DNA of 64,000 nucleotides from contig OX442314.1 in NCBI GenBank assembly GCA_949358305.1, positions 3,100,001 to 3,164,000 on the forward strand, given 5' to 3'. Shown here in pieces: positions 5,901 through 37,200 of the stretch. The notes under the pieces are model-generated. The model ran no database searches and had not been told where the DNA came from. It saw only the letters and a list, made by a program, of their open reading frames with translations. The number at the start of each line of letters is the position of its first letter. Position 1 is the first letter of the stretch. The DNA is from Strigamia acuminata. Its lineage: Eukaryota. The position numbers and the translations under genes are program-made.

Positions 5901-6008
5901 TATAATTTTGTTTTACAACGAATTAGTAATTGTCCACACATACAAGATATAAATTTTTTTTTTTTATTTTTTCAAAAGAAATATGTAATTAAATGTAATG
6001 AACACACT

Positions 6009-8378: not shown

Positions 8379-8574
8379 CGCAGATCAGTTTGGAATGATA
8401 ATTCGTCTGTTGTTAAAAGATGAAGAACGGTCGCATCGATTGTAGGAGAACACGAAACGCACGCTATTGTCACGATACAAGAAGTGACCGGAAGTCACGT
8501 GACTATGTGATTGGTCCGTGAGATTACACCCAACTCCCCCTGCCGGTGTCACGTACGCAAAATGTACGTATCAC

Positions 8575-9587
8575 GTAAAAATTGTAAGAAATCTCGATTA
8601 AAACTGAAAAAACACAAAAAAAATTGTTAGAAACTCTATTAAAACTGAAAAAACACATAAAAGATGATAAAACACGTATTAAAACCAAAAAAATTATTAA
8701 AAACTGTGAAAAACCAATTAAAACTTAAAAAAACCCTAAAAAATCATCAAAAAACCGAAAAAAACTGGAAAAAAAACATTAAAACCCGTAAAAAACGGTT
8801 TAAAAATGAAAAAAACCCTAAGAAATCATAAAAAAAATGATAAAAACGAGTTAAAAGCAGTTGAAAACCATGAAAAACGGTGAAAAACCGAAAAAAAAAT
8901 GGCGTTGATGTGTTGCAGTGAAGCACCGGGTAAATGCGCTAAGCAGCCTGCCGGCGCGGATTTTGGGCGGTGTTTTTTCCATTGATTGATTAGGCCAGTG
9001 TGTACACACTTTATAATGCCAATTAACGCTGAGGCCAGTGTGTACACACTTTATAATGCCAATTAACGTTCAAAAAAATCAAATCAATCAAATCAAATCA
9101 ATATTAAAATGAAAACAACTTTATTTAGGCGAAATGAAGTTTTTTTATTTCTTTTTTACAAAATAAATGGAAAGAAATGGGAAAAAGTTTGTTCTAGAAG
9201 CTCTGGTATCCTGAAAATACAAAATATGTAATAAAAAACATTTTTTTCATTGTTATTAGAAAACGAGAGAAGACACGAGATTCTCATGAGAAATTCTCGT
9301 GTTTTCTCGCGTTTTCTCGCAATCGCCAATTTGACCCATCGCCAATTTGACTCATCGCCAATTTGACCCATCGCCAATTTGACCCATCGCCAATTTGACC
9401 CATCGCCAATTTGACCCATCGCCAATTTGACCCATCGCCAATTTGGGAACACGGTTCCCATTTAATGGGTTCGGCGATCGCCAATTTGCAATTTCCGATT
9501 TGGCCGTCGCCAATTTGACCCATCGCCAATTTGCAATCGCAAATTTGGCCGTCGCCAATTTGGCGGTCGCCAATTTGGTCCCCGCCC
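8575..9587. repeat. Right long TIR of the MULE, with inverted 16-bp array (about 9322-9580)
   Basis: Reverse complement of the left arm, plus an extra internal duplication near 8990-9070. Confidence 0.88.
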
Positions 9588-10825
9588 TGATAGATATTGA
9601 CTTCACCGTTGTAGAAATGTATGTGATGACGTGTTTTATCAATTTTAGACACCGAAATCAAATTGGCTTCGAAGTTCGGTGCAAAAAGTACATTCGTCAA
9701 ATTCACAATACAATTGCAGTCGTCTATCCTGGTGAGCAGTCGGACGTTTCCTTTCCCAGTCACCTTGGACTTGCCTTGTCCGAGTTGGATGTTGAAAGGC
9801 ACGATGTCCACAAAATCCGTAAACCAAGCCCGAACATATGAAAAGTGGTCCGTCGCGCCACAGTCGACAATCCATTCGTTGGATTGCATGAAATGAGCGA
9901 CTGGGCGCGCTGGGGCTTGCGGGGCACTGGCGAAGAATGTCCCTTCTCGTGTTGGACGAGAACAACCACGCGGACGCGTATCATCGGGTTTTGGCGCGGA
10001 ATTTTTGTTGCGCTTCTTGCTCTTACTCCGAGAGCGTTGGAAAGAAGCCGATGCCGAGGGTTGATTGCGATCCTCCCGCCGTGGATGGGGACACTTGTTC
10101 GCGTAGTGGCCCATCTCATTACAGTTGAAACATTTAATTTCGGATAAAGGTCGACGAGGACGAGAATTCTTCCGGGATTGTTGGCCTTTTACAGACGAAT
10201 GCACAGAAGACGAGTGCACATTATGTAATCCCATCGGTTTTAGTCGGAGATATTCGGAAATCAACTGTTCAGCGACTTTGGTCGGTGTGAATTCCGGATC
10301 GGGCCAATGATATATGGCAAACGTTGCCTGTGCGTATTCGGGCGGTAATCGGTTGAGGTATTGATATGCATGATGATCGGGTGTCGTAACTTCTTTGATA
10401 TCTGCCAATTGACGGACGAAGTGATCCACTCGATTGATAAAATCCTGCATTTCCTCATTGGGTTCGAGATGTAGAGTCAAGAACTCAGACCGTAATGCTG
10501 CCCGTCGTGCCCGCGAACTAGGCGCGTACGCTTTAGCCAGGACGTCCCATGCCTGTTTGGGAGTATCACAATTGTCCAGGGCTGAACGTTTCGGTTCGCT
10601 GACATACATGTAAATGTGTCCGAGAGCTTTGTCCTTTTTAACCATGTAACGTTCTTTTTCTTTGTCCGTTAAAGTCAAAAGATGATCGGCCTCCTTCTCT
10701 TCCGTCACATGCCTCCAAAGGCCCTCGGATTTCAAAAGCATCCGCATCGCTCTCTGCCAGGGCTCGTAATTCCCAACAGAGAGGATGGGAATCCTGCTGA
10801 CCGTCGTTTCCGTTGTCTTTTGCAT
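9588..10825 (-). pseudogene. Copia A gag, CCHC knuckle and protease
   Basis: NYEPWQRAMRMLLKSEGLW; CFNCNEMGHYANKC; WIVDCGATDHF. Confidence 0.93.
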
Positions 10826-11644
10826 CGTTGCGAAGATTCAGCGCACCACGCAAAACACACGGACTCAGGAAATGGTATAACGGCGATCGAAGCACTTCAC
10901 TAAGGCACAAAGAGGTGTGGACGAATGTTTGTTCACACAAAATCGTTGCACTATTCACTAAATCACCTCCCACGTGGTTCAAAGCGGATATCACCAGATG
11001 GGGAGCCAATGCTAAAATTGGCTGAGAACCTAAAGCAAGTGTCCCCCTAGCTTCCTTTATAGCCACCTGGGGCTGCAGGAGTGCTAGGTGGCGCAGGGCT
11101 CAGCCTTGCTTTAGAATACAAACACCGCTTGGACAGACTTGTCCGTAGGGCAGTGCCGATGCTAAAGGATCCCTTCCAAAATACCCACTTAAAACTAACA
11201 AATAAAATCGACAGGGAAGGCGAAAGGTGATGAATCTCCCGTGGAAGGTCACACGGGCTCGCGACAAAGCACAAGACGGGTTTTCTCGAAAAACCCGCTA
11301 GAAAAGCGTGTTAATTTGTGGTCCAATGTAGTGTGGATTAACTCATTCAGCAGTGGTATGAAAAACATCTATTGTGAAAGCAAGCACAAACACCATCTTC
11401 ACCTGGTTGAAGAGAAACATCAAGTGTGATTTATTGTCCAGTCATGTGACTGGGAGAAAGTAAACAACGCCCCCTTTGGGCAGAATACATAAGTTATTTG
11501 TGACAAATACTGCAGCCAATCGTGCAGCTAAGATAGTGTACAAATTAACAAGTATACAATCTAAAGAACAACATCGCTTGATGATACGAAATAATACAGA
11601 CAGTTATAACACATAAAAGCCTAACATTCGGCCCCCTCGTAATA

Positions 11645-14600
11645 TCAAGCATTCAGAGTAGTAGGATCGATCAAAAATCGATTACAAAAATGCACTAGAT
11701 CGGTTTTATCAACCGACTTCGTAAATATGTCGGCAAAGTTCGATTTGGTTCCCACATGTACCACCTGCAGGTTCTCCTTCTTGACGAGTTCCCGTATAAA
11801 GTGGTACCTTACATCGATATGTTTCGTCTTTCGATTTTCTATATTCGATTTAGTAAAGTCCACGGAAGAGATATTATCGCACAGCACTCGGTGATAAAAG
11901 TTGTTTGCCAACTCAGGGACGATCTCGTATAATACTCTGACAATCCAGATAAAATCCTTGACGGTCTCCGTGAGTGCCACATACTCGGCTTCCATTGTGG
12001 ACAGTGTCACATTGCGTTGTTTGAATGTCCTCCAATAGATGGGAGCATTGCCCAACGTTATAAGGGTTCCGCCAACAGAAATCCGATCATCTCGATTATT
12101 GGCGTAATCCGAGTCGCTGTAGCCAATGACTTCAATTTGGTCGTTAGGGAACAACATCAGTCCGAGGTTTCTAGTTGTCCTTAAATAGCTAAGCAATTCC
12201 AAGAGTACGATCCAATGGTTCCACCCGGGGTTGGATTGGAATTGGCTCAGAATGTTGATTGCGTACGCCATATCTGGCCTCGTTCTTGATCCAATAAATG
12301 CTAAAGAACCAAGCAAGCTTCTATACGGTATCTTCTCCATGACTTTGAAATCTTCAATGGTAGTGGGGCATTGCTGTTTTGTGAGAATGGTCGATTTGAT
12401 CATTGGTTGCGACCTAATCTTCACTGACTTTAGGTGATTTTCGAATCTCAGCAATACCTTGCTGATGTAACTTCTTTGATGCAAAATCATTAGTTGTTTG
12501 TGTGAGTGGAATTCAACTCCTAACAGTTTCTTTGTCCGTCCCAATATTACTAGATCGAAATGCGTCTTAATCATGTTGAGAACGTTCATCGCGTCTTTAT
12601 GATGTTTGCCGAAAACTACGATGTCATCAACGTATACGATTAAATATGCGACATTCTTGAACTTGTAAACGCAGTTGCACCAATCTACGTGTTGTAAACC
12701 AAGTTTCAGCAAAGTTTCTTCGAGTTCAAGCCCCATTCTCTTCCGGATTGATGTAAGCCGTATATTGCCCGAAGTAATTTGCAAACGTAATTTTCTTTGC
12801 CCTGGCAAACGAATCCTTTGGGTTGACGCATGTAAACCGTTTTCTGTAGCTTTGCGTATAAGTAAGCGCTCTTGACGTCAGCTTGGATGTATGTCCACTT
12901 TAACATACAGACGAGTAGCGTAAATAGAAAACGAATGATGGAAAAGTCCACCACAGGCGAAAAGGTTTCTTCATAAGACTCGCCATAGACTTGGGAAAAA
13001 CCCTGCGCCACAAGTCTCGCCTTATAACGTGCAATTTCTCCTTTTTTGTTCTGTTTAACAGTGAAAACCCTCTTGGATCCCACTAATTTAACGTCGGATG
13101 GTGGTGGGACCAATTCCCAAACGTCACGTTCGTGCATCACGTCGATCTCGTCGCGCATCGCCTGATCCCATTCTTCTTTCTCTGGTAGGCTGGCAATCTG
13201 CTCAAAACGTGCGGGTACGAAAACTTCGAGATGGTTTGCTTCGAAATCGAGGGTCAATTCGTCTAAATCATCTAAATCAAAGTCGTCCGCCGTCACATTC
13301 GATTCAGTGGGTTTCTTCTTCCTCTTATCGTCGAAAAGGTGTTCTGGAACACGTAAATTATGTTCAGTACAATAGCGCTTCACTTCTGGTATTGAACGCA
13401 ATTTCGGTTTGTCGTATCCGGCGATTGTGTACTCATAATCCTTGTGTCCAGTGGGTCTCGTTTTCTCGGTCCTTTTCCAGACGAGTGGAGGAATTGTCGG
13501 AACTGGGTTCACAACATCGACTCCAGGTTGTGGTAAAATCCCAGGCAGTTTCATTCCTGCTTCGGCTCCAGGTATGTTGGGTTTTGGTCGAAGCTTCTCA
13601 TCCGGCAATCTCAACTTCAAATTGAGCTGAGGTAACTCCTTTCCTTCTTCCTGTTTAAGTGGTTGCGGCGGAGGTAGGGGTGGCCTTATATCCTCATCCG
13701 AGTAGTACTGACGGTCGTTGTTGTCATCCAGGTTATCGTTCAAATTGTCAATAAAAGTTGTATATTTCTCAGGTAGGCCCAGTACGCCTTCAACTCCGCG
13801 CCTGCTCTCAACGAACTTGACATCACTTGTTTCAATAACTTTGGAGAAATCCGGCAACCAGATTCTGTAGCCCTTTGTAACTCGTGAATAGCCAAGCATG
13901 ATTCCATGTAATGCTTTGTTATCGATCTTGCCGTCTCGCACTCTCTTCTGCACGAAGCAGAGACTTCCGAATTTTCTCAAATGTCGGAGTGACGGCTTGC
14001 GACCATAATACAGTTCCATGGGCGTTTTATCCGAGTTCAATTTTGCTATTCTGTTCCTCAAATAGTTGAATGTCAGGATGGCTTCCCCCCAGAATCTGTG
14101 TTCCATCTGTGCGTCGTAAATGAGAGCTCGCATTCCATTTGCTAAAGTTTGGTTGAGTCTTTCGGAAACGCCGTTTTGGACTGGTGTGTAGGCATTGGTT
14201 CGCTCGTGGATAATGCCCTGTTCTTCCAAGTATTCCCCAAATTTGTTGGAGCAAAACTCCATGCCATTGTCCGTGCGGATGGCTAGGATTGATTTTCCCA
14301 GTAGCCGTTCGATTCTCTTTGTGTGTTTCCGAAATAGATCAAATACTTCATCTTTCCTTTTCATTAAGTAGACGGTTGAGTAGCGAGAGTAGTCGTCCGT
14401 TATTGTTAGGAAATATTTATTTCCCGAGAGAGTTTCCGTCGAAAACGCTCCACACACGTCCATGTGTAAGAGTTCTAGTGGTCCCTTTGATCTAATCCCT
14501 GGCAAAGACTTGTGAGGAATGGCTTTCTTCTTGGCCAAGTCACAGACATCACACTGTGTAATTGGAACATCCAAGAATGATAAACCCACCACGGCGTCAC

Positions 14601-15679
14601 TTTTGCTCATCCCCTGGACGCTTGGGAAATGAATGTGCCCTAACCGTTCGTGCCACAATCTTGCCTCTTCTGGATTTGATTTCTTTCTGCCTACGTCGGA
14701 TGACTCTTGTTTCTTCTGCTCGCTCGTATTGGCCTTGTTGCTCTCCTTTTGTTTTAGCTTCTCGAGATCCGGTTTCTGATCACTTAGTTTGATATAATAC
14801 AGTCTGTCCTTTTTAACTGCTTCCATCAGTTGTCTCCTCCATTGTGGATCGTATATTTTTACCAAACCCGCGCCTATGGCCACTCTGCATCTTGCTTCGT
14901 CAATACACGGCCCCGACATTAAATTCCTTCGTAGATCTGGCGCGTAGTAGACCTTCTTGAGTGTAATTGGGACTGTGTCGTTCCCAACTAGACACATAAT
15001 GCAGACATCCCCGACTCCTTGTATTTTAATGAGGGTTTTCTTATCCGCTTGGCTGATGGTTCCGGTCATCTCTTTGAAATTATGAAACTGATTCCTATCC
15101 TTGCAGAAATGTCCTGTTGCCCCCGTGTCATAAATCCAACAATTGCTGGCTTGGCTGCACTGCAACATTTCCTGGTCGCTCAATTCTGTGAGGAATCCGA
15201 CGTCTAACATGTTGGAATCAAGTTCCTCAACTGTATTTGACTTCATATTCGCGTTTGGTGCCAATTGCAATTGAGCTGTACAGTCTTTAGCCCAATGACC
15301 ATGTTGATTACATCGAAAACACGGCCCCCGTCCCATTGATCCGGTGCCATTTCCTCTGAAACTTCCCCTCGTGTTTCTGCCACCTCGATAGTTCGATCGA
15401 CCGCCTCTTTGTCCAGTGTAATTCGCTTTGTTGCTTTGATTATTGTTCTGTTGTGATTTCGAATTGTCACCACTTTTGGCATTCTGCGAGCTTTGCCCTG
15501 TGCTGAATGCGTCCACGACTGGTCCCTGGCCAGAATCCCTTCTTTGTTGGGCCAATCTTCCTTCCTCGGCGACTAACTCGGCTTCCACTTTCTCCAATGT
15601 GAAGTTAATGTCTTCCCATCGATAAATTGCCTGAACGATCGATTGGTACTCTTGAGGCAGGTATCTGATTAGTTGAAAC
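11645..15679 (-). pseudogene. Copia B gag(3')-PR-IN-MBD-RT-RNaseH with a 1-nt frameshift near 12735
   Basis: ORFs 12706-15597 and 11645-12808: CCHC, WIYDTGAT, LWHERLGH, IRTDNGMEF, YKARLVAQGF, YVDD, GYSDSDY, TKHIDVRYHF. Confidence 0.93.
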
Positions 15680-16115
15680 TATTAGTATGCGATTAATTAT
15701 TTTGTCCGTTTCCCCATGCATTTCTGGATAGGCATGGCAGATATGTGTGTTGGCATCCTTTGGATACCCGTGTAGCGCATATTAATGCTACTCTTATGTG
15801 ATTAACACACATATTCTATGTTTCTTGTGTCGTCTGCTTGAGAAAGCGATAAATGTTGTTTTCCGTGTTGTTTATCGGTTACTTATGCCTAGGTTAACAA
15901 TTACTTATATTGTAAAGAACAAATCAATGCTTGTTGCTATTGATTTGTCCTATTGTCATATTTTGTACGGTTTGAGACCAATTAGCCTCAAACCCAGTTG
16001 CATTTATGTTTTCATGTGATTAAAACATGGCGGGCGCGAAGTGCGAGCTCCCCGCACATTTTAAGCTGGTTTCAACTCCTTTCCGATGTTTCCTGGTCTC
16101 CACGGACTTATCAAA

Positions 16116-16127
16116 TGGTAGCAGAGG
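16116..16127 (+). promoter_or_regulatory. Copia C PBS (3' end of tRNA-iMet)
   Basis: TGGTAGCAGAGG, 2 nt after the LTR. Confidence 0.85.
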
Positions 16128-17244
16128 TCTCACGATCGGGCCAACAGGTTATTGACGAGTTCGTGAGGTTTTTCGGGCGAAAACGAACGACGGAAGTTCG
16201 TCGCAGATCGTCGCCGAGACGTATCGCCGAAAACCGGAATTTTTCGCGAAGGACAGCCGTGACGACGTGTGCGGACAATTCTACAGTGAATTTGGAGCAA
16301 AACGGTGTAAGGAACATTGCATTTCGTTTATTTTTCGCCGATATAACCGAGTTTTTCTCGGGCGGCGCCATTTTTGTTTTTCCGGAACTTTGCTGCAAAC
16401 CACGGCGAAGTTAGCGTGTCTACGAGTGTGTACGGAACAACACACGCACGCCTAACGTTTCGACGAACGAATACGTCGATTAAGCCGCTGCATTTGGTGT
16501 CTTTCCAGCGTGGGAACGTCTGGAAACCGTCATTTTGCGAAGAAATCGTCGCGAATCGACGATTGTTGCACCGGCAGCCATTTTCGTTGGATTTTTCGTC
16601 AAGAACGACGAGATTCAACTCGCGGATTTAATCCGGCGATCACCGAGAAGTCCTGCACACGATAAGCGTGTGTGCAGGCGGTTATTTCCGTGCTTCGCAT
16701 CCAGGAAAGCGGGTACGAAGGCGTGGACGTACGCAACATCGATTTTGGCCGATACACGGAAGTGTGTACGCGGTCTGCACGTCAGCCCAGTTCCGTGCGA
16801 AGACAACGTGAAGCCGACATTTACTGCAACGTGGGAACCAATTACGACGCAAGGATCCCGTAATTGGCCAACTTCACATCTGAAAAGTGTATTTTAGTTG
16901 CTATTTTCGTGAAACTCTGTTAATTCTTAAGGTTTTTGTTTTGGGGTCCTTTTGTTTATTCTGCACCCTTTAGGCAGTCGCCTACGTGCAGTCTCATTCC
17001 GGTCTGGGCTTGTCCGTGGCCAACTAGTCGTCCCGCGGCCCCCAGGTGGGTCGGTCGGAAGCTAGTAGGGCGACCAGATTCGGGTTTTTCACCTCACTTA
17101 TTGAGGTGCCCAAAGGGAAGTTTGTGATTGTTTCGCCTTCAATTTTTGGGGGCATTTTCGCTTCTCTGCACGGCATTTTCGTCGAAATAGTGAATTTAGT
17201 GTTTGTGCTACGAATTTGTGTCGAATTTCTTCAAATTCTTCAAC

Positions 17245-18618
17245 ATGTCGAGTTGGGACCGACATGATGATTACAAGGATGTACGCAAACTGGACGGCTC
17301 CAATTATCCCACCTGGAGCATGCAGATCCAGCTTTTGCTTCAATCATACAGTGTTTGGGGACATGTGACCGGCAAAATCAAGGAACCGCCTGCTGGATCG
17401 CCGGCAAAGGAAATTCGTGACTACGAAAAGGGCGAAGAAAAAGCCCGCTCCACCATTTGTCTGGCTTGCAACGAACCACAGCAAGTCGTGGCTGTGGCCC
17501 ACCCAACCGCGAAGGGTGCGTGGGAAGCGCTGAAAGCGGCTTACCAGCCGACCACGCGCGCACGCAAAGCCCGACTCCGGCGGGAATTCCTCGATATGCG
17601 TCTACGGGAGGATGAAGAGATGGTCGTCTTTACTTCCCGTGTCGACCGGAAAGTTACACAACTCGCCGACATGAAGATTGTGGTCTCGGATGAGTTCCAC
17701 GCTTTCCAGTACTTGGATCTTTTGCCGCCCCAATTCGAGCCAGTTAAACAGACAGTGTATCACTGGCCCGACCCGGAATTTACGGCCGCTGCCGTGAAAG
17801 AAAGACTTTTAGGCGAGTATAATCGCCTTTACGAGAAGGGGGACGAATTTGGAGTGCCCAACCCGACACCGTTGGAAAACACTGGAGCCTTCTTTGGCGG
17901 AGGCAGTGGTCAACGTGGACGCGGCGGAACCGCGCCCAGTTCCCCACGTGTGTGTTTTACCTGCGGTGGGACAGGCCATTTTTCCCGCGACTGCCCTTCT
18001 CCACCTAAACAGCAACTTACTGGAAGAGGCGGATCAACAGGACAGTTTAGGGGCAATCCACGAGGAAAATCACGTGGAAAAGGCCGGCAAAAGGCCGCCG
18101 TCACCCAAATGAATATTTTTGATGACGTCCCCATCTCTTACTTCTCCGCAGCGATTTCGAATCAAGAGCAACCTCCTGTCGTATCGTTGGTGTCACATGC
18201 GAACTTTGATTCGCAATGGTACGTCGACACAGGAGCGACGGACCATTTCTCCTTCAACAAGTCTTGGTTCTCCGACTTCAAACCATTAACTGGTTACAGC
18301 GTCCAGCAGGGCGAAGGAAAGTCGAAAATCGAGGACATCGGGACTGTGACATTGATATCCCTTTATGGACAAAAGAAACGGGAATTACAATTGAAAAATG
18401 TCTTCTACGCTCCAAACTTCAGAAAGAATCTGATTTCATTAGGTCGTGCAGATGAAGCTGGGGCTACCACATTTGTAAAGAATGGAAAAATGTCCATTTT
18501 TCATGACAGTATTGATGCGCCTTCTATCACTGCGACACGTACGAGTGATAGAATGTATAAAGTCAATTGTCAAGTGAATACTGCACACATTGTTAACGCT
18601 GCTGCATTACCTGCGTAA
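17245..18618 (+). CDS. Copia C gag-protease
   Basis: KLDGSNYPTW; CFTCGGTGHFSRDC; WYVDTGATDHF. Ends at a TAA that is in frame with the downstream pol. Confidence 0.88.
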   Translation: MSSWDRHDDYKDVRKLDGSNYPTWSMQIQLLLQSYSVWGHVTGKIKEPPAGSPAKEIRDYEKGEEKARSTICLACNEPQQVVAVAHPTAKGAWEALKAAYQPTTRARKARLRREFLDMRLREDEEMVVFTSRVDRKVTQLADMKIVVSDEFHAFQYLDLLPPQFEPVKQTVYHWPDPEFTAAAVKERLLGEYNRLYEKGDEFGVPNPTPLENTGAFFGGGSGQRGRGGTAPSSPRVCFTCGGTGHFSRDCPSPPKQQLTGRGGSTGQFRGNPRGKSRGKGRQKAAVTQMNIFDDVPISYFSAAISNQEQPPVVSLVSHANFDSQWYVDTGATDHFSFNKSWFSDFKPLTGYSVQQGEGKSKIEDIGTVTLISLYGQKKRELQLKNVFYAPNFRKNLISLGRADEAGATTFVKNGKMSIFHDSIDAPSITATRTSDRMYKVNCQVNTAHIVNAAALPA

Positions 18619-21600
18619 CAGAATGCGGCAGTGAAGCCTAGTCCACCTTTAAAGGGTGAAGAAATTGTTAATTCATTACTAACTCATTTAGATTTTAAGA
18701 CTGCATTAACCCAAAATTTGAGTAAGACAGGGAAACCTGCAATTGCGAATAAGGGGCAAGTAAATACTGCGAATAATGCGCAAGCGATCGTGGCAAATAA
18801 TGCGAGTCCGAGTCAGAAGATGAATGCTTTGAACAACAAACAGGTCGGCTTGATAGCCAACAATGGGGATAAATCAAAGACTCCGAAGATTTCCAAACAA
18901 GTTGTACAAAACAATTTGAAAGATAATGGTGGGAACAAAGCCTTTATTAAGCCTGACAAACCCCAAACGATGGATGTTTGGCATTCACGTTTTGGGCACC
19001 TTAATGCGAAAGGGATTGCATTGTTGGAGAAATCCGATGAAGTATTTGGGCTGAAACTTTCCAACAATGAATTGTCGGCTTGCGATGCTTGTTCGAGGGC
19101 GAAAAGCACACGTGCCAGCTTTCCTCCCATTATTAATATCTCCACTAAAGGGATTTTGGAAATTGTTCACTTAGATGTTTGGGGGCCCTCACCGGTTAAG
19201 AGCATTGGTGGGGCATTTTATTTCCTAATTATGGTTGATGATTTCTCCCGACTGATGTGGATTATCATCATGAAAACAAAAGATGAAGTTTTGGGTCATT
19301 TCAAGAAGTGGTTGACGGAAATTGAACGGCTTACTTCTAAAAAGGTCAAAGCCATTAAAACTGACAATGGTGGGGAGTTCATATCGAAACAATGGAATGC
19401 TTATACTGATAGCATTGGGTTGAAGTGTATGAGGACGAATACATACAGCCCCGAAATGAATTCGGTTGCTGAGCGAGCGAACCGCACTATTCTTGGTGGA
19501 ATCCGGGCCTTACTTTTTGAAAATAATTTTTCCCCGACTTTGTGGGCAGAACTTGCAGTTTCTGTCGTTTACTTGAAAAATCGATTCCCACACACGGGAT
19601 TAGGAGGGAAAACACCTTACAATGTGTTCTACAATAAGAAATTGTCCCTGCGTCATGTCAAATGCATTGGGGCATTGACATATGTCCACATTCCTTCCCA
19701 GACAAGGGGTGGGAAATTGAAAGAAAGGGCGTGGGCAGGGGCATTGATTGGTTATGCAGCTTCCACCCGTGGGTATCGAATTTGGGATCCGAAACGGAAC
19801 CAAGTGTTCTTCTCGAAACATGTTAAAATATTGGAACAGAATTTTTGGTATGAACATTTGAAAATTCCTCCCTCGAGCCCCTCATATTTCGACAGCATGT
19901 CTGATTCTTCAAACGAGGATGGCTCCTCGTCAGACGACGACAGCGTTCATGGTGGCCCCCTACCGGAAGCAGTGGTTCCCCCACCCCCAATTCAGGAACC
20001 TGCGCCCGAAAAGGCACCTGAACAAGTTGAGAATGCTGGTGTCGTGGAAGATGTCATCGAGGATATAGTGCAAGATGTCCTTAGAGATGCAAATGTTGAT
20101 GAAATTGGTGGGGCAAAGGGGGATGATGAGAATTTCTTCAATATTTACCCCGATGACGAGGATGAAATTGAGGATCCTGATGCGAGTCCTCAACTATCCC
20201 CCCGAACGTCACCTACACCTGTGCGTCGTAATCCCCCACGAAAAGGAAAGGATACAGGGGAACGCACAGTTCCAGCTGGTGGGTTATTGCCGTTGGACAT
20301 GTCTAAATGGCAAAGACGGCAGTCTGTGCGAAAATCAGGCGCAACGGCTGGGCAGGTTGATGTTTATTACATTTCACCAAAGCATGACAGAATTCGAAGT
20401 CGTGTTGAAGTTGTGCGGTGGTGTCGGGAAGAGGGATACGAGTATATCTCGGAATTGTTCAACTTCAAAGACATCAATGTCGGTTTTGCTGGTTGTTGCT
20501 CTGTAGAGCCTGACACCTACGAAGAGGCTGTAGCAGGTGTGGGAAAACCTGATTGGGAAAGGGCAATGGAGGACGAAATCGACATTTTTAAAGAACGAGA
20601 GGTGTATGTCGAGGTTGACAAAAGTGAAGTCAAGGATAAAACCTTGCTAGGGACAAAATGGATTTATAAACTCAAAAGGGATCATACGGGTGCGATTAGC
20701 AGATATCGTGCTCGTCTTGTTGCACAAGGGTTCAAGCAGAAGCCCGGCATTGACTTTACGGAGGTCTTCTCCCCCGTAGTCAACTTTGTGTTGGTCATGA
20801 TGTTCTTTTGTACTCTTGTAGTATTAAGGAGCTGGCGTGACTTACACCTTGACATCAAGGCCGCATATCTATATGGGGACCTCGATGAGGTGCAGTACAT
20901 CAACATCCCCAAGGGATATCGAACACCTGAAAACCAACACAAATGTTGGGAGTTGAGAAAATCTCTCTATGGGCTTCATCAGTCTGGTCGTATGTGGTAC
21001 CAGCGCTTACACGACCAGCTGATTGAAATAGGTTTTGAACCGGTTTTGGGTCTTAACTGTGTGTATAGCTTGGGTTCGGACGCCATACTCATCTTTTACG
21101 TCGACGATATTGTATTATTTTTGAGGGATGAGTTGGCAGAAGAGTGCGTTTTAGAATGGATTCAACAATCCTTTGAGATTGTCAATTTGGGCCCCGTCAC
21201 CCTTTTATTAGGGATTGAGTTTTGTAGGGACGGGGGAAATATCCTCATTCATCAACGCACCTATATTGCGAAGCTCTGCAAGCAATACGGTATTGACCCA
21301 TCTCACCGTGTTAGAGTGCCTGGCACGCCCGGCACTATGATCCAAAAAGTCCAAACGGGAGAACGTGTTAATTCGAGTTTTCCATATCGGTCTCTTGTTG
21401 GAAGTTTGCTCTTCATCGCAAGTCGCACAAGACCCGATATCTTGTTTTCGGTAATTGTATTGTCTCAATACAATGAGACTCACTCGACACGACACGTAAA
21501 CATGCTGCTTCAAGTTTTGCGTTACCTGGCTAATACGCCGAATTTCTCCATTAATCTTGGGAACTGCCAAAATGACAAGTTAACTGTTTATACAGATGCG

Positions 21601-22056
21601 TCTTACGCGCTGGATCAAGACAAACGCCGAAGTTTTGGCGGGCACATTATCTATTTGGGTGGTGTCCCCGTCTCCTGGAACTGCCATAAGCAGACCATTA
21701 CTGCCCTTTCCATTATGGAAAGCGAATTTTTGGCGGTTGTGGACGGTGTGAAGGAGATAATTTGGTTAGAACGCATATTTGACGCGGAAGTGATGATTGA
21801 CGGCTTTGACCGGGAAATACCATGTGTTTATGCCGATTCAATGCCTGCGATTCAATATGCGAAAAACCGCATAGAAAATCGCGCAAACAAACACATAGAC
21901 GTGAAATTGCATTTCTTGCGCGACTGGTTCGAGAAAGGTGTTTTTCGAATCAGGCACATCCCAGGGACCCTCAACGTCGCCGATATTATGACAAAGTGGT
22001 TGTCCCGCGCAAAATTGGACGCGTTGTGCGAGCACATTTTTGTCGCGACAAATTGA
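18619..22056 (+). CDS. Copia C integrase-MBD-RT-RNaseH (in frame with gag-PR after one stop)
   Basis: VWHSRFGH, HLDVWGP, KTDNGGEF, MBD WQRRQSVRKSGATAGQVDVYYISP..RIRS, YRARLVAQGF, YVDD, YTDASY, NKHIDVKLHF. Confidence 0.9.
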   Translation, partial: QNAAVKPSPPLKGEEIVNSLLTHLDFKTALTQNLSKTGKPAIANKGQVNTANNAQAIVANNASPSQKMNALNNKQVGLIANNGDKSKTPKISKQVVQNNLKDNGGNKAFIKPDKPQTMDVWHSRFGHLNAKGIALLEKSDEVFGLKLSNNELSACDACSRAKSTRASFPPIINISTKGILEIVHLDVWGPSPVKSIGGAFYFLIMVDDFSRLMWIIIMKTKDEVLGHFKKWLTEIERLTSKKVKAIKTDNGGEFISKQWNAYTDSIGLKCMRTNTYSPEMNSVAERANRTILGGIRALLFENNFSPTLWAELAVSVVYLKNRFPHTGLGGKTPYNVFYNKKLSLRHVKCIGALTYVHIPSQTRGGKLKERAWAGALIGYAASTRGYRIWDPKRNQVFFSKHVKILEQNFWYEHLKIPPSSPSYFDSMSDSSNEDGSSSDDDSVHGGPLPEAVVPPPPIQEPAPEKAPEQVENAGVVEDVIEDIVQDVLRDANVDEIGGAKGDDENFFNIYPDDEDEIEDPDASPQLSPRTSPTPVRRNPPRKGKDTGERTVPAGGLLPLDMSKWQRRQSVRKSGATAGQVDVYYISPKHDRIRSRVEVVRWCREEGYEYISELFNFKDINVGFAGCCSVEPDTYEEAVAGVGKPDWERAMEDEIDIFKEREVYVEVDKSEVKDKTLLGTKWIYKLKRDHTGAISRYRARLVAQGFKQKPGIDFTEVFSPVVNFVLVMMFFCTLVVLRSWRDLHLDIKAAYLYGDLDEVQYINIPKGYRTPENQHKCWELRKSLYGLHQSGRMWYQRLHDQLIEIGFEPVLGLNCVYSLGSDAILIFYVDDIVLFLRDELAEECVLEWIQQSFEIVNLGPVTLLLGIEFCRDGGNILIHQRTYIAKLCKQYGIDPSHRVRVPGTPGTMIQKVQTGERVNSSFPYRSLVGSLLFIASRTRPDILFSVIVLSQYNETHSTRHVNMLLQVLRYLANTPNFSINLGNCQNDKLTVYTDASYALDQDKRRSFGGHIIYLGGVPVSWNCHKQTITALSIMESEFLAVVDGVKEIIWLERIFDAEVMIDGFDREIPCVYADSMPAIQYAKNRIENRANKHIDVKLHFLRDWFEKGVFRIRHIPGTLNVADIMTKWLSRAKLDALCEHIFVATN
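20290..20470 (+). other. MBD-like domain in Copia C pol
   Basis: Aligns by eye with the MBD2/3 core GWKKEEVIRKSGLSAGKSDVYYFSPSGKKFRSK, keeping the R, D, YY and RS positions. Confidence 0.88.
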
Positions 22057-22507
22057 TTAATCGAAGGGGAATTTATTAGTATGCGATTAATTATTTTGTC
22101 CGTTTCCCCATGCATTTCTGGATAGGCATGGCAGATATGTGTGTTGGCATCCTTTGGATACCCGTGTAGCGCATATTAATGCTACTCTTATGTGATTAAC
22201 ACACATATTCTATGTTTCTTGTGTCGTCTGCTTGAGAAAGCGATAAATGTTGTTTTCCGTGTTGTTTATCGGTTACTTATGCCTAGGTTAACAATTACTT
22301 ATATTGTAAAGAACAAATCAATGCTTGTTGCTATTGATTTGTCCTATTGTCATATTTTGTACGGTTTGAGACCAATTAGCCTCAAACCCAGTTGCATTTA
22401 TGTTTTCATGTGATTAAAACATGGCGGGCGCGAAGTGCGAGCTCCCCGCACATTTTAAGCTGGTTTCAACTCCTTTCCGATGTTTCCTGGTCTCCACGGA
22501 CTTATCA

Positions 22508-22964
22508 GAAACGCTTGGTATAGGTCCTCCAATTTGTGTTTGACGTCCGCTAACTTCTTCGCAGCATTCCTAATTTTTGCGGCGAAGACACCAATCGTTT
22601 CCGTCGTCGGGTCGTACTTTAAGCTGAAAAATTCGTCCAGCAGACGTATTATCCGCGCCCTCGAAACTGGTTCGAAGTTAGTTTGCAGCGTTTTCCAAGC
22701 TGCTTGGGCGTCTTCAGTCCCGCTGAGCAATTCGTGGTATTGCTCCTCGATTGAGTAGTAGATTAGGCTGAAAGCCCTTCCTTTTCGCAATTTATAATCG
22801 GAGCGATCACGCCACGACGCTCCCGGTGCCAGCGCTTCCTCGGTTCCATCGGTAAATCCCCAACATCCGTGGTGCATCAAAAGCACTTTGATCTGCTGCT
22901 TCCAGGCGTCGTAGTTCAGTCTGTTTAGCAAGGTGATTCTCCTCTCCAATTTGTCCGAATCCAT
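22508..22964 (-). pseudogene. Copia B gag N-terminus, cut by Copia C
   Basis: MDSDKLERRITLLNRLNYDAWKQQIKVLL...YQAF, continuing in frame at 15674 after removing Copia C. Confidence 0.9.
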
Positions 22965-23715
22965 TGTGTTTTGAGAATGCTTGTCAAACAACACACACTG
23001 ATTCCCCCCAACAAAAACACTTTCAATACTGAATAATCACAACAAGGTGCAGTGTTGTGATGTTAATGCGCTCTTAAACTTATGTTAGTAATAATCCTAG
23101 CACAAACTAAGCTAAAAATGGAATAATATTGAAAATAAACATAATTTTTCAATAATGTGTTCGAAAATGGTGTCTTCGATATATTCCTAGTCGTATCGCT
23201 TGTTGTATCACACTTCACGTGTGTTTGCTTCTCTGTATTGACTTCCCTCGTCGATTCTCGTGTTGTATTGTCTTTTATCCGCAAAATATGCACCAATTGT
23301 CCGTCGTTTTCCAGTTCCCTTTAGTTTATTCGTCTCCTAAACCTCGATTCACACTTCACGTGTGGTTGGCGAGGATTTCCGCACTGTCGTTGATTCGTTT
23401 CCACGGCGTTTTCACGGCAAAAAATGACACGTCGACGATGCGTATCGCGCCTCGCGATATCGATATTATTGTCCGAAAATTGGAAAAATAAACTCGTAAA
23501 TAAATAGTTTGGTATTTTTCGAACCCAATTAGTGTTGCTCCTTCGCTTGATGGCTGTTTTTCACTTCGCATTCACGGATATCTCGGCTCAAACATAAGCT
23601 GGCTGCTTCCTCAATGGGCGCCGCCATCTTGGATGGAAAGGATGAATTTTCCCTCACGACCTCCAAATGACAGCTGACCTGTAAGAACCGCTCCAGATGT
23701 TTTTCCAACGATATT

Positions 23716-23729
23716 CTGGCCCATAACCT
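23716..23729 (-). promoter_or_regulatory. Copia B PBS, internal (half) tRNA-iMet type
   Basis: AGGTTATGGGCCAG, near-identical to the Drosophila copia PBS GGTTATGGGCCCAG. Confidence 0.8.
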
Positions 23730-24651
23730 TGTTAATTTGTGGTCCAATGTAGTGTGGATTAACTCATTCAGCAGTGGTATGAAAAACATCTATTGTGAAA
23801 GCAAGCACAAACACCATCTTCACCTGGTTGAAGAGAAACATCAAGTGTGATTTATTGTCCAGTCATGTGACTGGGAGAAAGTAAACAACGCCCCCTTTGG
23901 GCAGAATACATAAGTTATTTGTGACAAATACTGCAGCCAATCGTGCAGCTAAGATAGTGTACAAATTAACAAGTATACAATCTAAAGAACAACATCGCTT
24001 GATGATACGAAATAATACAGACAGTTATAACACATAAAAGCCTAACAAAGCGCAATTCGGCTTCGAAAAACCGAATTCTTCTTGAGTAAATCGAGGCTCT
24101 TCACTTAAAGCGTTGAAAACGACGTAACAATCAAAAATCGGCGATACTACATGCACGCCGGGGTGCATGAAGCGAGAATCGTCTCGTTTCTCGTTGTAAA
24201 ACGTCTCGTCGACGTTGTCGCAAAAGAAAATCGTCGAAATTCTGAAAAATACAAAAATTCGCCTCGAAATTTGCGAGACCGCACAATTTCGGACGAAATT
24301 AGCCGGAAAATCACGTGAAGTGCAGCGCAAGTTGCTTGTGAACGCCGGTGGCACGTTGTCGACGTTCAAATCACGGGAATGCAGCTTTGAAAATGGCGAG
24401 AAACCTGAAAATATAAATTCGCACGAAAATTCGCGAAACTCGCGGAATTTTCGGCGATAAATGGTGAAAACAATTGGTGTACAACGTCGTCGTGACGTTG
24501 CATGAATCCAGGGTTGATTCGGCGGTGTGAAACGTCCCGAAAATAGCAAAAATCGTCGCGAACACCTGAAAATACCGAAATGGCCGCGAAAATCGCGAAA
24601 AAACGCGAATTTTCTGCAGCGGTTAGTGGAAAATAAGCGTGCAAAGGATGA

Positions 24652-24670
24652 AAACCATCCTCTGCTACCA
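24652..24670 (-). promoter_or_regulatory. Copia A PBS (3' end of tRNA-iMet, 19 nt)
   Basis: The plus strand reads AAACCATCCTCTGCTACCA, the metazoan tRNA-iMet 3' end. Confidence 0.9.
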
Positions 24671-24672
24671 AT

Positions 24673-25218
24673 TGTAGGTCGGTAGCAGAGGAAAACGACC
24701 AAGAACCACTCGAAACGTCGAGTGAAACACGGCGAAAACGTCGCAAAGGCGTCGCACTACTCGTGCGAACGTGTGGGCGATGTCGACGACGGAAAACGAA
24801 TTGAACGGCCGCGCAAATGCGCTTATATGCCGTGAAATCAAGATACGAATGCTTAAAAGCATAAAACAAATTTACTAAAGCAAAAATACTTACAAATAAA
24901 GGGTTTACAGAGTGAAAATGGATGGGCGAGAGCCAAAACGATGGTCGCTGCCATCTTGGAAGGTGATGTAAACACTAACGACACCTGGTGTCGTGAATTG
25001 GCGTTACGGAATTGAGAAATTCCGTAAAGCTTAACAAAGCATTAAGACCTGCATGGTACCTCATGCAGAAACACAATAACATAATGTAAATATTTGGAAA
25101 TGACATACATAATTGAATATAATAAATATCGGAATAAATAAACGAATATAATAAAACAAAATATAATGTGATTCTATATCACATCGACACACATATCATT
25201 TGGTTCCTTAGACCAACA
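24673..25218 (-). repeat. Copia A 5' LTR
   Basis: Abuts the PBS. The outer end TGTTGGTCTAAGGAACCA resembles the Copia D LTR start, and the flank from 25219 resumes the CACTG element. The partner LTR is outside the window. Confidence 0.8.
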
Positions 25219-26989: not shown

Positions 26990-26995
26990 TATATA

Positions 26996-30496: not shown

Positions 30497-31298
30497 AATC
30501 GGGGGTCGACCGACTCGAACCGGGGGTCGACCGACTCGAACCGGGGGTCGACCGACTCGAACCGGGGGTCGACCGACTCGAACCGGGGGTCGACCGACTC
30601 GAACCGGGGGTCGACCGACTCGAACCGGGGGTCGACCGACTCGAACCGGGGGTCGACCGACTCGAACCGGGGGTCGACCGACTCGAACCGGGGGTCGACC
30701 GACTCGAACCGGGGGTCGACCGACTCGAACCGGGGGTCGACCGACTCGAACCGGGGGTCGACCGACTCGAACCGGGGGTCGACCGACTCGAACCGGGGGT
30801 CGACCGACTCGAACCGGGGGTCGACCGACTCGAACCGGGGGTCGACCGACTCGAACCGGGGGTCGACCGACTCGAACCGGGGGTCGACCGACTCGAACCG
30901 GTGGTCGACCGACTCGAACCGGGGGTCGACCGACTAGAACCGGGGGTCGACCGACTCGAATCGGGGGTCGACCGACTCGAACCGGGGGTCGACCGACTCG
31001 AACCGGGGGTCGACCGACTCGAACCGGGGCTCGACCGACTCGAACCGGGGGTCGACCGACTCGAACCGGGGGTCGACCGACTCGAATCGGGGGTCGACCG
31101 ACTCGAACCGGGGGTCGACCGACTCGAACCGGGGGTCGACCGACTCGAACCGGGGGTCGACCGACTCGAACCGGGGGTCGACCGACTCGAATCGGGGGTC
31201 GACCGACTCGAACCGGGGGTCGACCGACTCGAACCGGGGGTCGACCGACTCGAACCGGGGGTCGACCGACTCGAACCGGGGGTCGACCGACTCGAACC
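30497..31298. repeat. 21-bp CpG-rich satellite GAACCGGGGGTCGACCGACTC, about 38 units (array split by Copia D)
   Basis: Direct reading; 4 CpG per unit. Confidence 0.97.
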
Positions 31299-34200
31299 TG
31301 TAGGTCTAAAGACCACTGATTTTATCGATATTAAGTATTTACAGCTCTCTTATATCATAATTATCAATCAAACGATTGCTTTTGTTATTATTCGACATTT
31401 CTGTTCAATTTGATGCTGTCACGTATGTAATTCCATACAATTCTCTTATTTATGATATGATTTGTTCTTTTGTTGACCGATATTGTCAATTACTGGCACC
31501 AGGGTGCCATATGTATTAACTTTACTTATCCAACATGGCGCTACACACGGGCGTCTGTAGCTCAACTTCTTTATCCAGTTATGGACTCAAATGTAATGTA
31601 TTTTCCAATATTAAATTGTTTTTATTATTTTAATTCATTGTGTCCACTTTAAAGCACATTAGGTGCTATTAGTTTGCGCATATAAGCGGCAATTTCCGCG
31701 CGCCCGTATCGCATTCAAACGACACGTCGTCGTTACGTCCGTGCGAGTAGCACGGCCCCGTTTCTCCACGCTTCCCGGCGATATATCGCCGATATTTTGC
31801 GCACAACTCTGCTACATTGGTAGCAGAGGATGGTTGCTACTTGTTACGAATTATTTCCGCCTAATTATCGACGCAGTTCGCGCGAAATTCGCGAATTTGC
31901 GGCGACATTTATATTTTCAGATCGCGTCCGCCATTTTGGATCCGATTTTCGTCTCGACGACGTCGCCGACGTCCCACAGACGTTCTGTAGAAGTCCGTGC
32001 TGCTTCCCACTCAATTCTGCGTCTAATTTCGATCAAAATTCCGCGGTCTCGCGAATTTTGTGTCGAATTTTCTTTTTATTTTCAGTTTTTGACGATTTGC
32101 GATTCGACAACGTCGAAACAACCATTTTCACCGAGAAACGAGACGATTCTCGCTGTGTCATACCCCGGTGTATGCACAGTATCGACAATTTTGATTTATT
32201 TACGTCGATTTTGCACTTTTCTTGCGAAGAGCCTCATTTTATGAGAAGAATTTGGACTTTCGAGTCCAAATTGCGCTTTTTCTCCGGTTTTTTCGAGAGA
32301 AACCGCGCCGTGCCCTCATTTGCACGAGGACTGCAGCCGCAGTTGATTCATCTATTTCTCCTATTTTCGCAATTACCTTTGTTAATATTAAGTGGGGATT
32401 TTGGTGGGTCATTTAGAATCCTTGGTGCCCTACGCTCGATTCCGAGCACCGCGCCATTGTATTCCGTGATAAGGCTGAGCCCTGCGCCACCTGACACTCC
32501 CGCGATCCTAGGTGATCACAAAGGACGTCAGGGGGACACTTATCACGGGTTATCAGGCAATTGTAGCATTGCCTCCCAACTCTGGTCTTTCCGCCTCGAA
32601 CCTCAAGTGCTAGTGAAGTGCGACAGTTCAGTGCTCCAATTCAGTGCCTTTCGCCTGTGCCATTCTCTGAGCCTTTGTGTTTTCTGCGTTGTGTTTTGTG
32701 CTTCGTCCAACGATGCAGAAAGCAGCCAATTCATCGGGCGGTCTAATTCCCGTCCTAGGAGTCAGGAATTATGAACAGTGGCAGAGAGCAATGCGTATGT
32801 TGCTCAAGTCCGAAGGCTTTTGGAGGCACGTGACTGAAGAAAAAGAAGCGGAACATCTCGCCACTTTAACGGTCAAGGAAACCGAAAGATATATGACTAA
32901 AAAGGAGAAGGCGCTCGGACATATATATATTTATGTTAGTGAAGGTAAACGTTCGGTTCTCGACAATTGTGATACGCCGAAACAGGCGTGGGACACGCTA
33001 GCCAAAATATATGCGCCAAGTTCCAGGGCACGTCAAGCGTCCATGCGCTGGGAGTTTTTGAGCTTGCATCTTGAGCCCAACGAGGACATGCCCGATTTCA
33101 TTGCCCGTGTTGACAACTACGCTCGTCAATTACGTGATGTCGGCGAAACTGTTACGGAAATTCATCAAGCGTACCAGTATTTGAAGTGTTTGCCGCCTGA
33201 GTACGCGCAAGCCACGTTCGCTATTTACCATTGGCCAGATCCTCAATTTACGCCCACTTTAGTAGCCGAACAATTAATTTCCGAACATCTACGCTTGAAA
33301 TCATCTGGATTACTTGGGACAGTTTCATCAACGGCTCACGCTTCAGCGAAGGGACAATTTCGACAGCGTAATAAATCTGGTCCTCGTGATTTATCAAACG
33401 TCAAATGTTTTAACTGCGACCAGTTGGGGCACTATGCCAATCGATGTCCGCTCCCACGCCGTCAAAGTCAGGGCCAACCAACGGCTTCATTTCAACGCAC
33501 GTCCCGTAGCAAGAGTCGCAGGCGTAATAAAAACGCTGCTACGAAATCTAACCCCAACCGACCACGCGAGAGTTCACATCCGCACCGAGAGGGGACATTT
33601 TTCGTCAATGCACCACAGGTCATTCATCCACCAGCTGTCCATTTCATGCAATCCAATGAATGGATAGTAGATTGTGGTGCAACGGACCATGTATCCCACG
33701 TACGCGCATGGTTTACCGATTTCACTGACGTCATTCCTTTCGACATCGAGTTGGGGCAGGGCAAGTCCCAAGTTACGGGCAAAGGAACAGTTCGACTTCT
33801 CACCGCAATTGACAAGGCCCGATGTGTTGTTAATTTAACGAATGTTCTCTACGCGCCGAATTTTGAAGCAAATTTGATTTCGGTTTCGAAGATTGATAAG
33901 ACTCGTCATCACACGCACATCTTTAACGGTGAAATTCACGTGTATCAAACGGACATTCGTAGCCCTCTGATTCGTGCGAAAGAAAGAGGTGGTCTATATT
34001 ACGTGGACGGCTTGTGTTCTACACCGACACTTGCGACGACAGTTTTTACGACAATTCCACCGACCACTCCACCGGTCCAAACATTTGTAACGACCGAAGA
34101 GGACTTTATTAAGATTCCGAAACAGAAGAAGGGGAACAGACCGATCACGGATTTTCGGATAGAGATGCCGATTGTTGAGAAGTTGAAGCAAACTCCCATC

Positions 34201-37200
34201 CAACAAGCTCCTATCCCAGTCAATCCGATCCCTCCTCCTGTTCCTACACTCACACACACTCTCACCAACCCGCCTACTCTTCCGTCATATTCAAATGCAT
34301 TGCAATCAATTCCAACCGTGAACGCCTTCCCTCCGCTTGGCAGCAATTTACAATCTCAAAAGAAAGTCATCGCGAATCCGGCTTCTGTCAAAGATGCCAC
34401 TGGTTTGTGGCATAGCCGATTAGGACATCTCCACACCAACGCGATGAAGCTATTAGCTGCTAATGATCAAGTATACGGTATGGAACCAGCGGAAGTGAGT
34501 CGGGAACTAGCCTGTAATGACTGCCGAATCGCAAAGTCTACGAGGGCATCGCACAAACCAGATCCAAATCCTTCTACTTCTAAGCCATTGGACCTCCTTC
34601 ACATGGACGTCTGGGGACCGGCCCCCGTCCCATCATTTGGAGGAGCGCGTTTTGTACTCACTATCATAGACGACGCCACCCGTTATTGTTGGATTATTCC
34701 ATTGGCTCAGAAATCTCAAGTTTTCGCATCTTTCAAGGACTTTGTTGCAAGGGTTGAGCGGATACAAGAAACGAGCGTCAAAGCCATACGTACTGATCGA
34801 GGCGGTGAATTTTTATCAAATGAGTTTCTCCGCTACCTTCAAGACAAGGGTATTCAGGGACAGCGAACAAACCCGTCATCGCCACAAATAAACGGCACGG
34901 CCGAGCGCATAAACCGAACAATGGCCGACAATTTTCGCGCAGTTTTATCCGAAACCAAATTGCCGGAAGCGCTCTGGGCCGAACTCGCAGTCTCGTTTTC
35001 TTATATCAAGAACCGGAATCCTCATTCACGACTCAACAATCAAGTCCCCTTCATCCTTTGGCGGCAGAGAGCATTGTCATTACGACACTTACGTAAACTG
35101 GGCTCCAAATGCTGGGCGCATTTCACTGCACCAGGCCGCAAGAAACTGGATCCGTGGGCCTGGGAGGGGTATTTAGTCGGCTACGCCACAGGGACCCGTG
35201 GATACAGAATTTGGAATCCGTCTGATAACAAAGTCTACGAATCTATTTATGTCAAGGTCGATGAACGGCAATCGTATCGAAAATCTATCAAAGTTTCAAC
35301 CCAACGACCTGAGGAATCATTTACCAATCCTGGACAACAGCAATCAGTTTCGTTCAGTGATGATGCCAAGTATCATGCTTGGCCGAGGGGATCCGACTCT
35401 GAAGGATCAAATCGCTCTGACAATGATTCCGATAATGGGGACAATGGCAATCAGACATCAACGTCTGCATCCATGCACACGCCGCTTATCCAATTACCTC
35501 CGCCGACAACGCCTGAGAGATTATTATTGGAAGCATGCTCGTTGGAATTGCCCTCTTCGGCCAGCTTAAGACAATCAATGTCATATCCCACTCTTTTTCA
35601 AGCAGATGACACGGATGCTGACATTGCACAAATGGATAACATATCGTTATATCCCGGGACATCCGAATTTACCGGCACATCCGCGGAACAATCACCGCGC
35701 CAGTCACCTCCGGTAACGCCTCATCCATCTGCACCACCGTCCCCACAACGTTCTCCGACTCGTTCACCTTCACTTGATCCGCCAAGATTTGTTACAACAC
35801 GTCGCAGACAACGTGCTGATGATCCAATGACTCACACTTTGCAAATCTTTGATCCCGCGCCCATGTCACCAGCACCTATATTGGGGACTGAAGTTGCCGC
35901 AGCAACTGCACGCCATACAACACATATGTGGCGATTAGTCGGCGGAGATGGACCATGTAGTGAATGGATCCGTGAAGAACATCTTCGAAAAGATCAGAAG
36001 CCTGGATCTATTTTAATCGATGTTTATTATTTCCCGACTCCAAAGATTCGACTCAGATCTTACAAGGATATTGAGGATTACTGCATGTTGAATAACATCG
36101 ATTATGAACCAGAACTTTTCTTTTTCGGTAACCTCGAACATAAATTGCCAACTCTTCCGGGCGTTCGTCATGCGGCTCACTTATGCCGAACTGAACCAGC
36201 TTCATATGCTGAAATTCCGAAGTTTAATGACGCTCCGAAATGGCGCGAAGCCATACAGGAAGAATTAGATACATTCAAAGAAAGGGAGATTTATGAAGAA
36301 GTTCCGAAACCACCGAACACAACGATACTCGGCTGCAAGTGGATTTTTAAGTTGAAGACCGATGCAGCCGGAACCGTCACCCGATATCGAGCACGCCTAG
36401 TAGCGCAAGGTTTTCGCCAAACCCTCGGTGTGGATTTCGACGAAGTGTTTAGTCCGGTTGTGAACTTCATTCTCATTCGTTTATTCTTCTGTCTTCTCGT
36501 GGTATTACGCGGCTGGAAGGACGCCCATCTCGACGTTAAATGTGCGTACCTGTACGGGGAGTTAAAGCATAAGGTTTACATGCGAATCCCGGCAGGTGCC
36601 ACATGTTTCGATCCAAACAACGTATGGCTACTCATCAAGTCATTATATGGGCTCCACCAGTCCGGAAGACAGTGGTTCGAAAAACTCGACGAAACACTTC
36701 GGGCCCTCGGATTTCGAAAGATGCCGGCATGCAACTGCGTTTACGTATTCGGCAATACCGCTGTCATGCTGGTTTACGTGGACGATATAGTTTTATTTTA
36801 TGCATCCGACAGTGCCTTTAAACAACTGATTCAACTCATCAGTTCGAAATTCGACATCGTAAATCTTGGCCCGATCACGAAACTCCTAGGCGTCGAATTC
36901 ATCCGTGACGCCGGACGCACGTTCATCACCCAACGTGCTTACATCGCAAAGATTGTTAAGAAGTTCGGGACGACGACTAACAACCTCGTTAAAGTGCCAG
37001 TGACCCCTGGAACTACACTCGTCAGAGGGTCAACCGAAAATCTAGAGGACTTTCCTTACCGATCTCTAATTGGTTCATTGTTGTTCCTGGCATCGAGAAC
37101 TCGCCCCGACATCTTATACTCCGTCATCGCTCTGGCACAGTTCAACACGTGCTACAATCGAACCCACATCCGTGCTTTGTTACAGGTTCTGCAGTACGTG

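Follow-up and report, generated by a model that had tools for sequence, protein, structure and literature searches.

A methyl-CpG-binding domain next to the integrase of four Copia elements assigned by sequence to the CopiaMBD family

Copia retrotransposons with a methyl-CpG-binding domain (MBD), known as CopiaMBDs, have been described from the centipede Strigamia maritima, with hundreds of MBD gene models or CopiaMBDs, and from two Stegodyphus spiders (de Mendoza 2019; PMC6673714). CopiaMBDs were reported to be monophyletic with MBD Ka/Ks under 0.1, and the supplement labels S. maritima clades A to H (PMC6673714). In DAP-seq, three S. maritima domains bound methylated CpG-dense DNA enriched in LTR elements, including CopiaMBDs, and in ampDAP-seq they showed almost no binding of unmethylated DNA; methyl binding was shown for these three Strigamia domains only (PMC6673714). 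Insertion-site bias tracked host methylation, its direction in the centipede being the reverse of that in the spider; targeting of integration was inferred by the authors, who added that non-integration roles cannot be rejected (PMC6673714). Methylation of transposable elements in S. maritima is reported to be high (PMC7343188). The 2019 survey had matches only in Strigamia and Stegodyphus, Nephila clavipes (= Trichonephila) having been scanned without a match, and its drawing has one CopiaMBD branch per host; whether integration is MBD-directed, and whether the patchy host range reflects ancient inheritance or old transfer, were questions it left (PMC6673714). A literature search, with subscription papers outside its scope, found no work extending the family and no use of the term CopiaMBD outside PMC6673714; in the passages concerned, 10.1101/2021.11.30.470311 and PMC8226279 cite the CopiaMBD work without adding to it. 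The fusion and its methyl binding are already known, and the elements reported here are new members.

The window analysed, 64,000 nucleotides of animal DNA, is filled with repeats and contains open reading frames of Copia, Gypsy and MULE type; four of its Copia elements (A to D) carry an MBD (Table 1). The Pfam order in B, C and D was gag, Pol_BBD, gag_pre-integrs, rve, SH3 and RVT_2, A being truncated at the start of the reverse transcriptase (RT); the RNase H portion was recognised in translations and by BLAST, without a Pfam match. Paired LTRs, a 5-bp target duplication, a primer-binding site and a polypurine tract are present in B, C and D, and A has just a probable 5' LTR, delimited by means of its TG..CA ends and the primer-binding site, together with that site. 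Element C is inserted in the gag gene of B and has a coding region at 17245-22056 with one in-frame stop in the protease-integrase interval. Element B, split by C, is inserted in the 5' leader of A, and its reading frame is broken within RT. Element A survives as gag-protease (9284-10837), integrase (3224-4981) and MBD plus RT start (350-836) pieces, a later insertion separating its MBD from its integrase. Element D has a single open gag-pol frame (32713-37716).

Table 1. Positions of the Copia elements, their MBDs and the CpG-rich array in the window, and identifiers of related spider proteins.
Feature	Position or identifiers	Strand	Details
Copia element A (outermost, broken)	350..25218	-	probable 5' LTR 24673-25218; cut off near 350
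Copia element B	11309..24047	-	LTRs 23730-24047, 11309-11626; 318 bp, 0/318 differences
Copia element C	15680..22507	+	LTRs 15680-16113, 22074-22507; 434 bp, 0/434 differences
Copia element D	31299..38455	+	518-bp LTRs, 99% identical, 5/518 differences; 5-bp target duplication
MBD of element A	515..679	-	Pfam 20.5 bits; independent profile 46.5 bits
Divergent MBD of element B	13330..13479	-	Pfam 14.7 bits, E 0.023; independent profile 29.9 bits
MBD of element C	20305..20469	+	Pfam 43.0 bits; phmmer to MBD1 E 2.7e-10; model pLDDT 93
MBD of element D	35962..36126	+	Pfam 17.5 bits, E 0.003; independent profile 46.8 bits
21-bp tandem array	30500..39191	.	4 CpG per unit, about 19 CpG per 100 bp
Spider Copia-MBD proteins	P0172-P0190, P0207, P0211, P0229, P0240, P0241, P0246, P0311		

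Contigs from runs X1, X2 and X3 (three of four runs, from two studies, one possibly the source sample) skip C and B, and by joining across each of the two they confirm the insertion order C in B in A. The sequence-only reading had placed four recently inserted, divergent families in one nest. The nest holds three of them, D being a separate insertion about 6 kb away. Recent insertion was borne out by the LTRs of B, C and D, but A is broken and presumably old, lacks a 3' LTR and contains three later insertions, namely B (with C), a MULE transposon (about 5012-9453) and a Gypsy-LTR element (837-3034). As to divergence, B and C show 33-41% identity to the remaining elements in integrase and RT, whereas A and D form a pair of sister families that share 80% identity across 296 integrase columns and 63-70% amino-acid identity across gag, integrase and the MBD piece. 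Three lineages are therefore represented, with three of the copies young and three of them nested. The primer-binding site of B (23700-23729, minus strand) differs from the one common to A, C and D; the latter matches what we take to be the 3' end of the animal initiator tRNA, and the former resembles the internal half-tRNA type of site of Drosophila copia. Direct literature support for this reading of the B-type site was not found, and a scan of metagenome contigs with a B-like relative gave 42 pattern matches, none of them confirmed.

Other repeats were noted in the window. The element at 837-3034 is young (its LTRs differ at 2/264 positions) and shows about 85% LTR likeness to the Gypsy LTRs; its internal ORFs gave no Pfam match, and it is probably a non-autonomous Gypsy partner. 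A segment is duplicated at 99% (26152-30499 and 45070-53712); the second copy contains a Gypsy element (45985-52604; 4/257 LTR differences) at a site that is empty in the first, and the first contains two elements with long inverted ends (26990-28640 and 29424-30116). The region 30500-45069 is made up of roughly 1-kb units in tandem, and in each unit a single CpG-rich 21-bp repeat forms a long array; the ends of the units are 80% like the MULE element at 5012-9453, and the units are probably non-autonomous MULE derivatives forming a satellite. At 54465-54610 and 54900-55099 there are short CCTAA/TTAGG-like runs in both orientations and then a 200-N assembly gap, after which comes a 56-bp tandem repeat, and a 501-codon ORF with abundant Gln, Asn and Ser at 61173-62678 (plus strand) had no Pfam match.

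In all four elements the MBD motif is in frame with the Copia polyprotein ORF, after the integrase SH3 domain and before RVT_2, where the sequence-only reading had put it. Pfam PF01429 was run on 75-amino-acid segments with a cut-off of 21 bits; MBD was the top or sole family in all four, but C alone passed the cut-off. Because three of the four domains fell short, an independent MBD profile was built from 13 database sequences, all of them from outside the window, and run against 1178 six-frame window peptides; since its 13 rows had originally been found with window queries, this control is independent in sequence and not in selection. The profile gave C 56.3 bits and the other three the scores in Table 1, against 5.5 bits for the next real place in the window and 11.3 bits for the best of 20 shuffles. 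A chance motif was ruled out by this separation of the four places from the rest of the window and from the shuffles.

Structural comparison agreed for C, whose best solved match by phmmer was human MBD1 and whose predicted structure matched MBD4 (TM 0.81) and MeCP2 (TM 0.74-0.77) in Foldseek, with a best E of 1.3e-5. For B the support was not significant; its model had a pLDDT of 73, and MBD chains headed the Foldseek list, with MBD2 at the top, at a best E of 0.84. Searched singly by phmmer against solved structures, D and B gave no MBD and only unrelated matches at E about 1; a 17-row MBD profile searched against the PDB matched 31 sequences, all MBD or TAM domains. The expectation that all four elements carry an MBD between integrase and RT was thus upheld by Pfam, the independent profile and the structure model of C. 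A chromodomain was ruled out, Pfam giving no match and, for B, Foldseek giving just weak rows at E >2; a domesticated host gene was ruled out by the LTRs and target duplications. No repressor-recruiting domain was found by Pfam in the MBD-bearing Copia ORFs.

Certain arginine and aspartate residues of MBDs read DNA. Numbered by alignment to MBD1 chain 1d9n, Arg22, Asp32, Tyr34, Arg44 and Ser45 are all present in A, C and D, so that the core of two arginines, an aspartate and a tyrosine, earlier ascribed to all four, is complete in these three; B retains both arginines, the aspartate and the serine, but has Glu at the Tyr34 position, along with a short loop. The loop of D is unlike that of MBD1/2. 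Among 97 relatives in Copia context, Arg22 was found in 94, Asp32 in 93, Tyr34 in 93 and Arg44 in 90, and Glu at the Tyr34 position in none. The tyrosine at this position is the methylcytosine reader, and methyl-reading residues are retained in "most" CopiaMBD copies (PMC6673714). Because the residues are kept only in "most" copies, the Glu in B tells against its function and not against its family membership. The B domain probably binds CpG but favours the methylated form less strongly or not at all, and the idea of a retrotransposon-encoded methylation reader in all four elements is doubtful for B. Among relatives, the integrase tree contains a subclade with a degenerate domain (P0043, P0044, P0045, P0050, P0051, P0052 and P0162; support 100/100), five of its seven rows having a weak MBD match and one none; in this subclade the Arg and Asp that read DNA are apparently gone, and loss or change of function is possible.

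Selection on the domain could be followed in the A/D pair. Between A and D the MBD had a dN of 0.23 at a dS of about 2.5 (near saturation), compared with a dN of 0.14 in integrase, 0.16 in gag, and 0.56 and 0.64 in the flanking linkers. An MBD dN below that of the linkers at near-saturated dS indicates that the domain is kept by selection; in this pair it is under purifying selection like the integrase.

Phylogenetic analysis of the integrase used 93 of 124 eligible rows; the 31 that were dropped scored low and had no MBD, and S. maritima T1IY17 was admitted with 40% of columns filled. One clade of 52 rows (support 100/98) holds all four window elements; 46 of its rows have an MBD match, five a weak one and one none, and the 41 rows outside it all lack an MBD. 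Within it, T1IY17 is sister to A+D (92/96), and B belongs to a branch of 27 rows (97/94) that includes proteins of Araneus, Argiope and Trichonephila. The RT tree, computed by a quick method from 70 of 127 rows that did not include A, gave a 23-row clade at SH-aLRT 99, without organism-named rows, and B fell with the same branch as in the integrase tree. In both trees, which include neither Stegodyphus rows nor the RT rows of PMC6673714, the MBD-bearing rows fall in one clade; the rows had been gathered by likeness to the window elements, and the profile behind the MBD label had itself been made from 13 of these rows. Placing B with the A/C/D group was not rejected by an AU test (p 0.061; the group was named after seeing the tree), so the spider-side place of B rests on branch support (97/94 in the integrase tree, SH 99 in the RT tree). 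The suggested match to CopiaMBD (de Mendoza 2019) was confirmed by the integrase clade with S. maritima and spider proteins, and on these sequence grounds A, B, C and D are classed as members of the CopiaMBD family.

Wider searches were in keeping with this placement. A profile search of 1.84 billion representatives returned 1394 matches at E up to 0.001, of which the best 150 were examined; among the matches listed, 59 of 137 new rows had a Copia integrase or RT. Five of the ten proteins that best matched the MBDs of A and D were from S. maritima (T1IGT7, T1IY17, T1JMZ2, T1IKL2 and T1IN31) and three from spiders, the MBD of D sharing 54% identity with T1IGT7 across 61 residues. In an earlier set of ten relatives one was organism-named, and it lacked an MBD; a further set had four spider-named proteins of ten, and 16 of the 28 matches in another relatives search were spider-named, with no other organism named. 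All organism-named MBD-bearing relatives were from S. maritima or spiders; a pseudoscorpion protein (P0046) gave no MBD match. Copia-borne MBDs were seen in Trichonephila clavipes, T. clavata, T. inaurata, Araneus ventricosus and Argiope bruennichi, and with these members the range of CopiaMBD is wider than published. No near-identical S. maritima protein was found in database searches (short gene models would have escaped the first two because of their length limits), nor, by eye, a near-identical row in Table S3 of PMC6673714; the host is therefore probably another than S. maritima. It is more likely than not a centipede.

The CpG content of the insertion sites was compared with that of the window. 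Flanks of D, B and C had 18.7, 8.7 and 7.0 CpG per 100 bp, corresponding to the 97th, 80th and 66th window percentiles, and the one readable flank of A had 4.7 (45th percentile). Five insertions without an MBD had 6.0, 2.3, 8.7, 4.3 and 1.0, the MULE site equalling that of B. Element D splits the 21-bp array into 30500-31298 and 38456-39191, such arrays making up 5.9% of the window. Flank CpG leans the predicted way but rests on D, and three two-sided sites in one window are too few. The CpG observed/expected ratio was near or above 1 over most of the window, which therefore has no decay signature of long methylation there. At 28001-30000 the ratio was 0.35, with TpG and CpA raised, and this depletion suggests that the host methylates CpG and that older sequence has undergone methylation-driven decay.

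Starting from the features directly observed in the window (the MBD, its position between integrase and RT, the clade with Strigamia and spider elements, purifying selection in A/D and the nest order), we consider it fairly likely that these CopiaMBD members bind methylated CpG through their MBD and tether integration to methylated CpG-dense repeats. The MBD would stay with integrase after proteolysis, would bind mCpG via two arginines, an aspartate and a tyrosine, and as a tether would direct fresh insertions into other methylated repeats and away from genic sequence. Such tethering would give nests like C in B in A and an insertion like that of D in a CpG-rich array. That the MBD steers integration, as the sequence-only reading proposed, is the leading model, but three sites are too few, the flank of A is average and a MULE shares the CpG density of the site of B. 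Nesting is also to be expected in so far as S. maritima MBDs bind methylated LTR elements including CopiaMBDs, and the loop of the three domains tested in 2019 is, by eye, like that of C and unlike that of A/D or B (PMC6673714).

The domain could instead bind the elements' own methylated copies or compete with host MBD proteins, easing silencing, with the nest produced by selection against genic insertions. This was raised as open in PMC6673714, and it would fit both the nesting of elements without an MBD (the MULE and the Gypsy-LTR element) in A and the just modestly CpG-rich sites of B and C. We think it unlikely, given that the domain directly follows the integrase in every element, that D lies in such CpG-dense sequence, and that the published insertion bias follows host methylation, oppositely in centipede and spider (PMC6673714).

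Binding to CpG-rich DNA or chromatin whatever its methylation, with targeting by CpG density alone, appears somewhat less probable again, and is most likely for B with its Glu at Tyr34. MBD3, BAZ2 and SETDB domains bind irrespective of methylation; the scores of A, D and B under the Pfam cut-off, the related subclade with a degenerate domain and the high CpG ratio of the window point the same way. For A, C and D it is opposed by the five intact key residues, and more generally by the near absence of unmethylated binding by the three Strigamia domains in ampDAP-seq (PMC6673714). That unrelated Copia lineages captured MBDs independently is very improbable and already largely refuted. The other window MBDs are just 24-27% identical to that of C, whose best solved match is human MBD1, and the primer-binding site of B differs; yet integrase and RT trees, from which the MBD was left out, give one supported clade of MBD-bearing rows, and the window MBDs agree in their position in the polyprotein and in a conserved Cys of helix 1.

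The co-occurrence of several divergent families had been singled out as the striking part of the locus; many clades in one genome are already known from S. maritima, with its hundreds of CopiaMBDs and its clades A to H (PMC6673714). What is new relative to 2019 is probably another host, the presence of a spider-like lineage together with Strigamia-like ones, and the occurrence of the family in orb-weavers. More speculatively, and with low confidence, the host may have both Strigamia-like and spider-like CopiaMBD branches recently mobile, the branches being old and shared and not one per host, and reading may have diversified, D aiming at a methylated CpG satellite and B, with its Glu, reading CpG in another state. 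Young copies of several branches, the open-frame D in a CpG-dense array and the Tyr-to-Glu variant of B provide built-in comparisons for MBD-directed integration.

Among known systems, chromoviruses (Ty3/Gypsy) likewise carry a chromatin reader right after integrase, which in their case steers insertion to heterochromatin (cited in PMC6673714); they differ in superfamily and in domain, theirs reading histone marks and not DNA methylation, and the likeness is one of analogy only. With the host proteins MBD1, MBD2/3, MBD4 and MeCP2 the window elements share the fold (C model) and the DNA-reading residues (A, C and D), but here the MBD is a lone domain inside a retrotransposon polyprotein. The closest likeness is to CopiaMBD of S. 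maritima and Stegodyphus, in the Copia domain order, the MBD beside integrase in the same ORF, the single clade, the purifying selection on the MBD and the many divergent clades per genome (PMC6673714). A and D resemble Strigamia rows of Table S3 (PMC6673714) and UniRef T1IGT7/T1IY17, with 52-54% MBD identity. Element B departs from its CopiaMBD relatives in the Glu at Tyr34 and in its primer-binding site, and unlike the CopiaMBDs of 2019 it groups with spider-named elements yet stands among Strigamia-like ones (PMC6673714).
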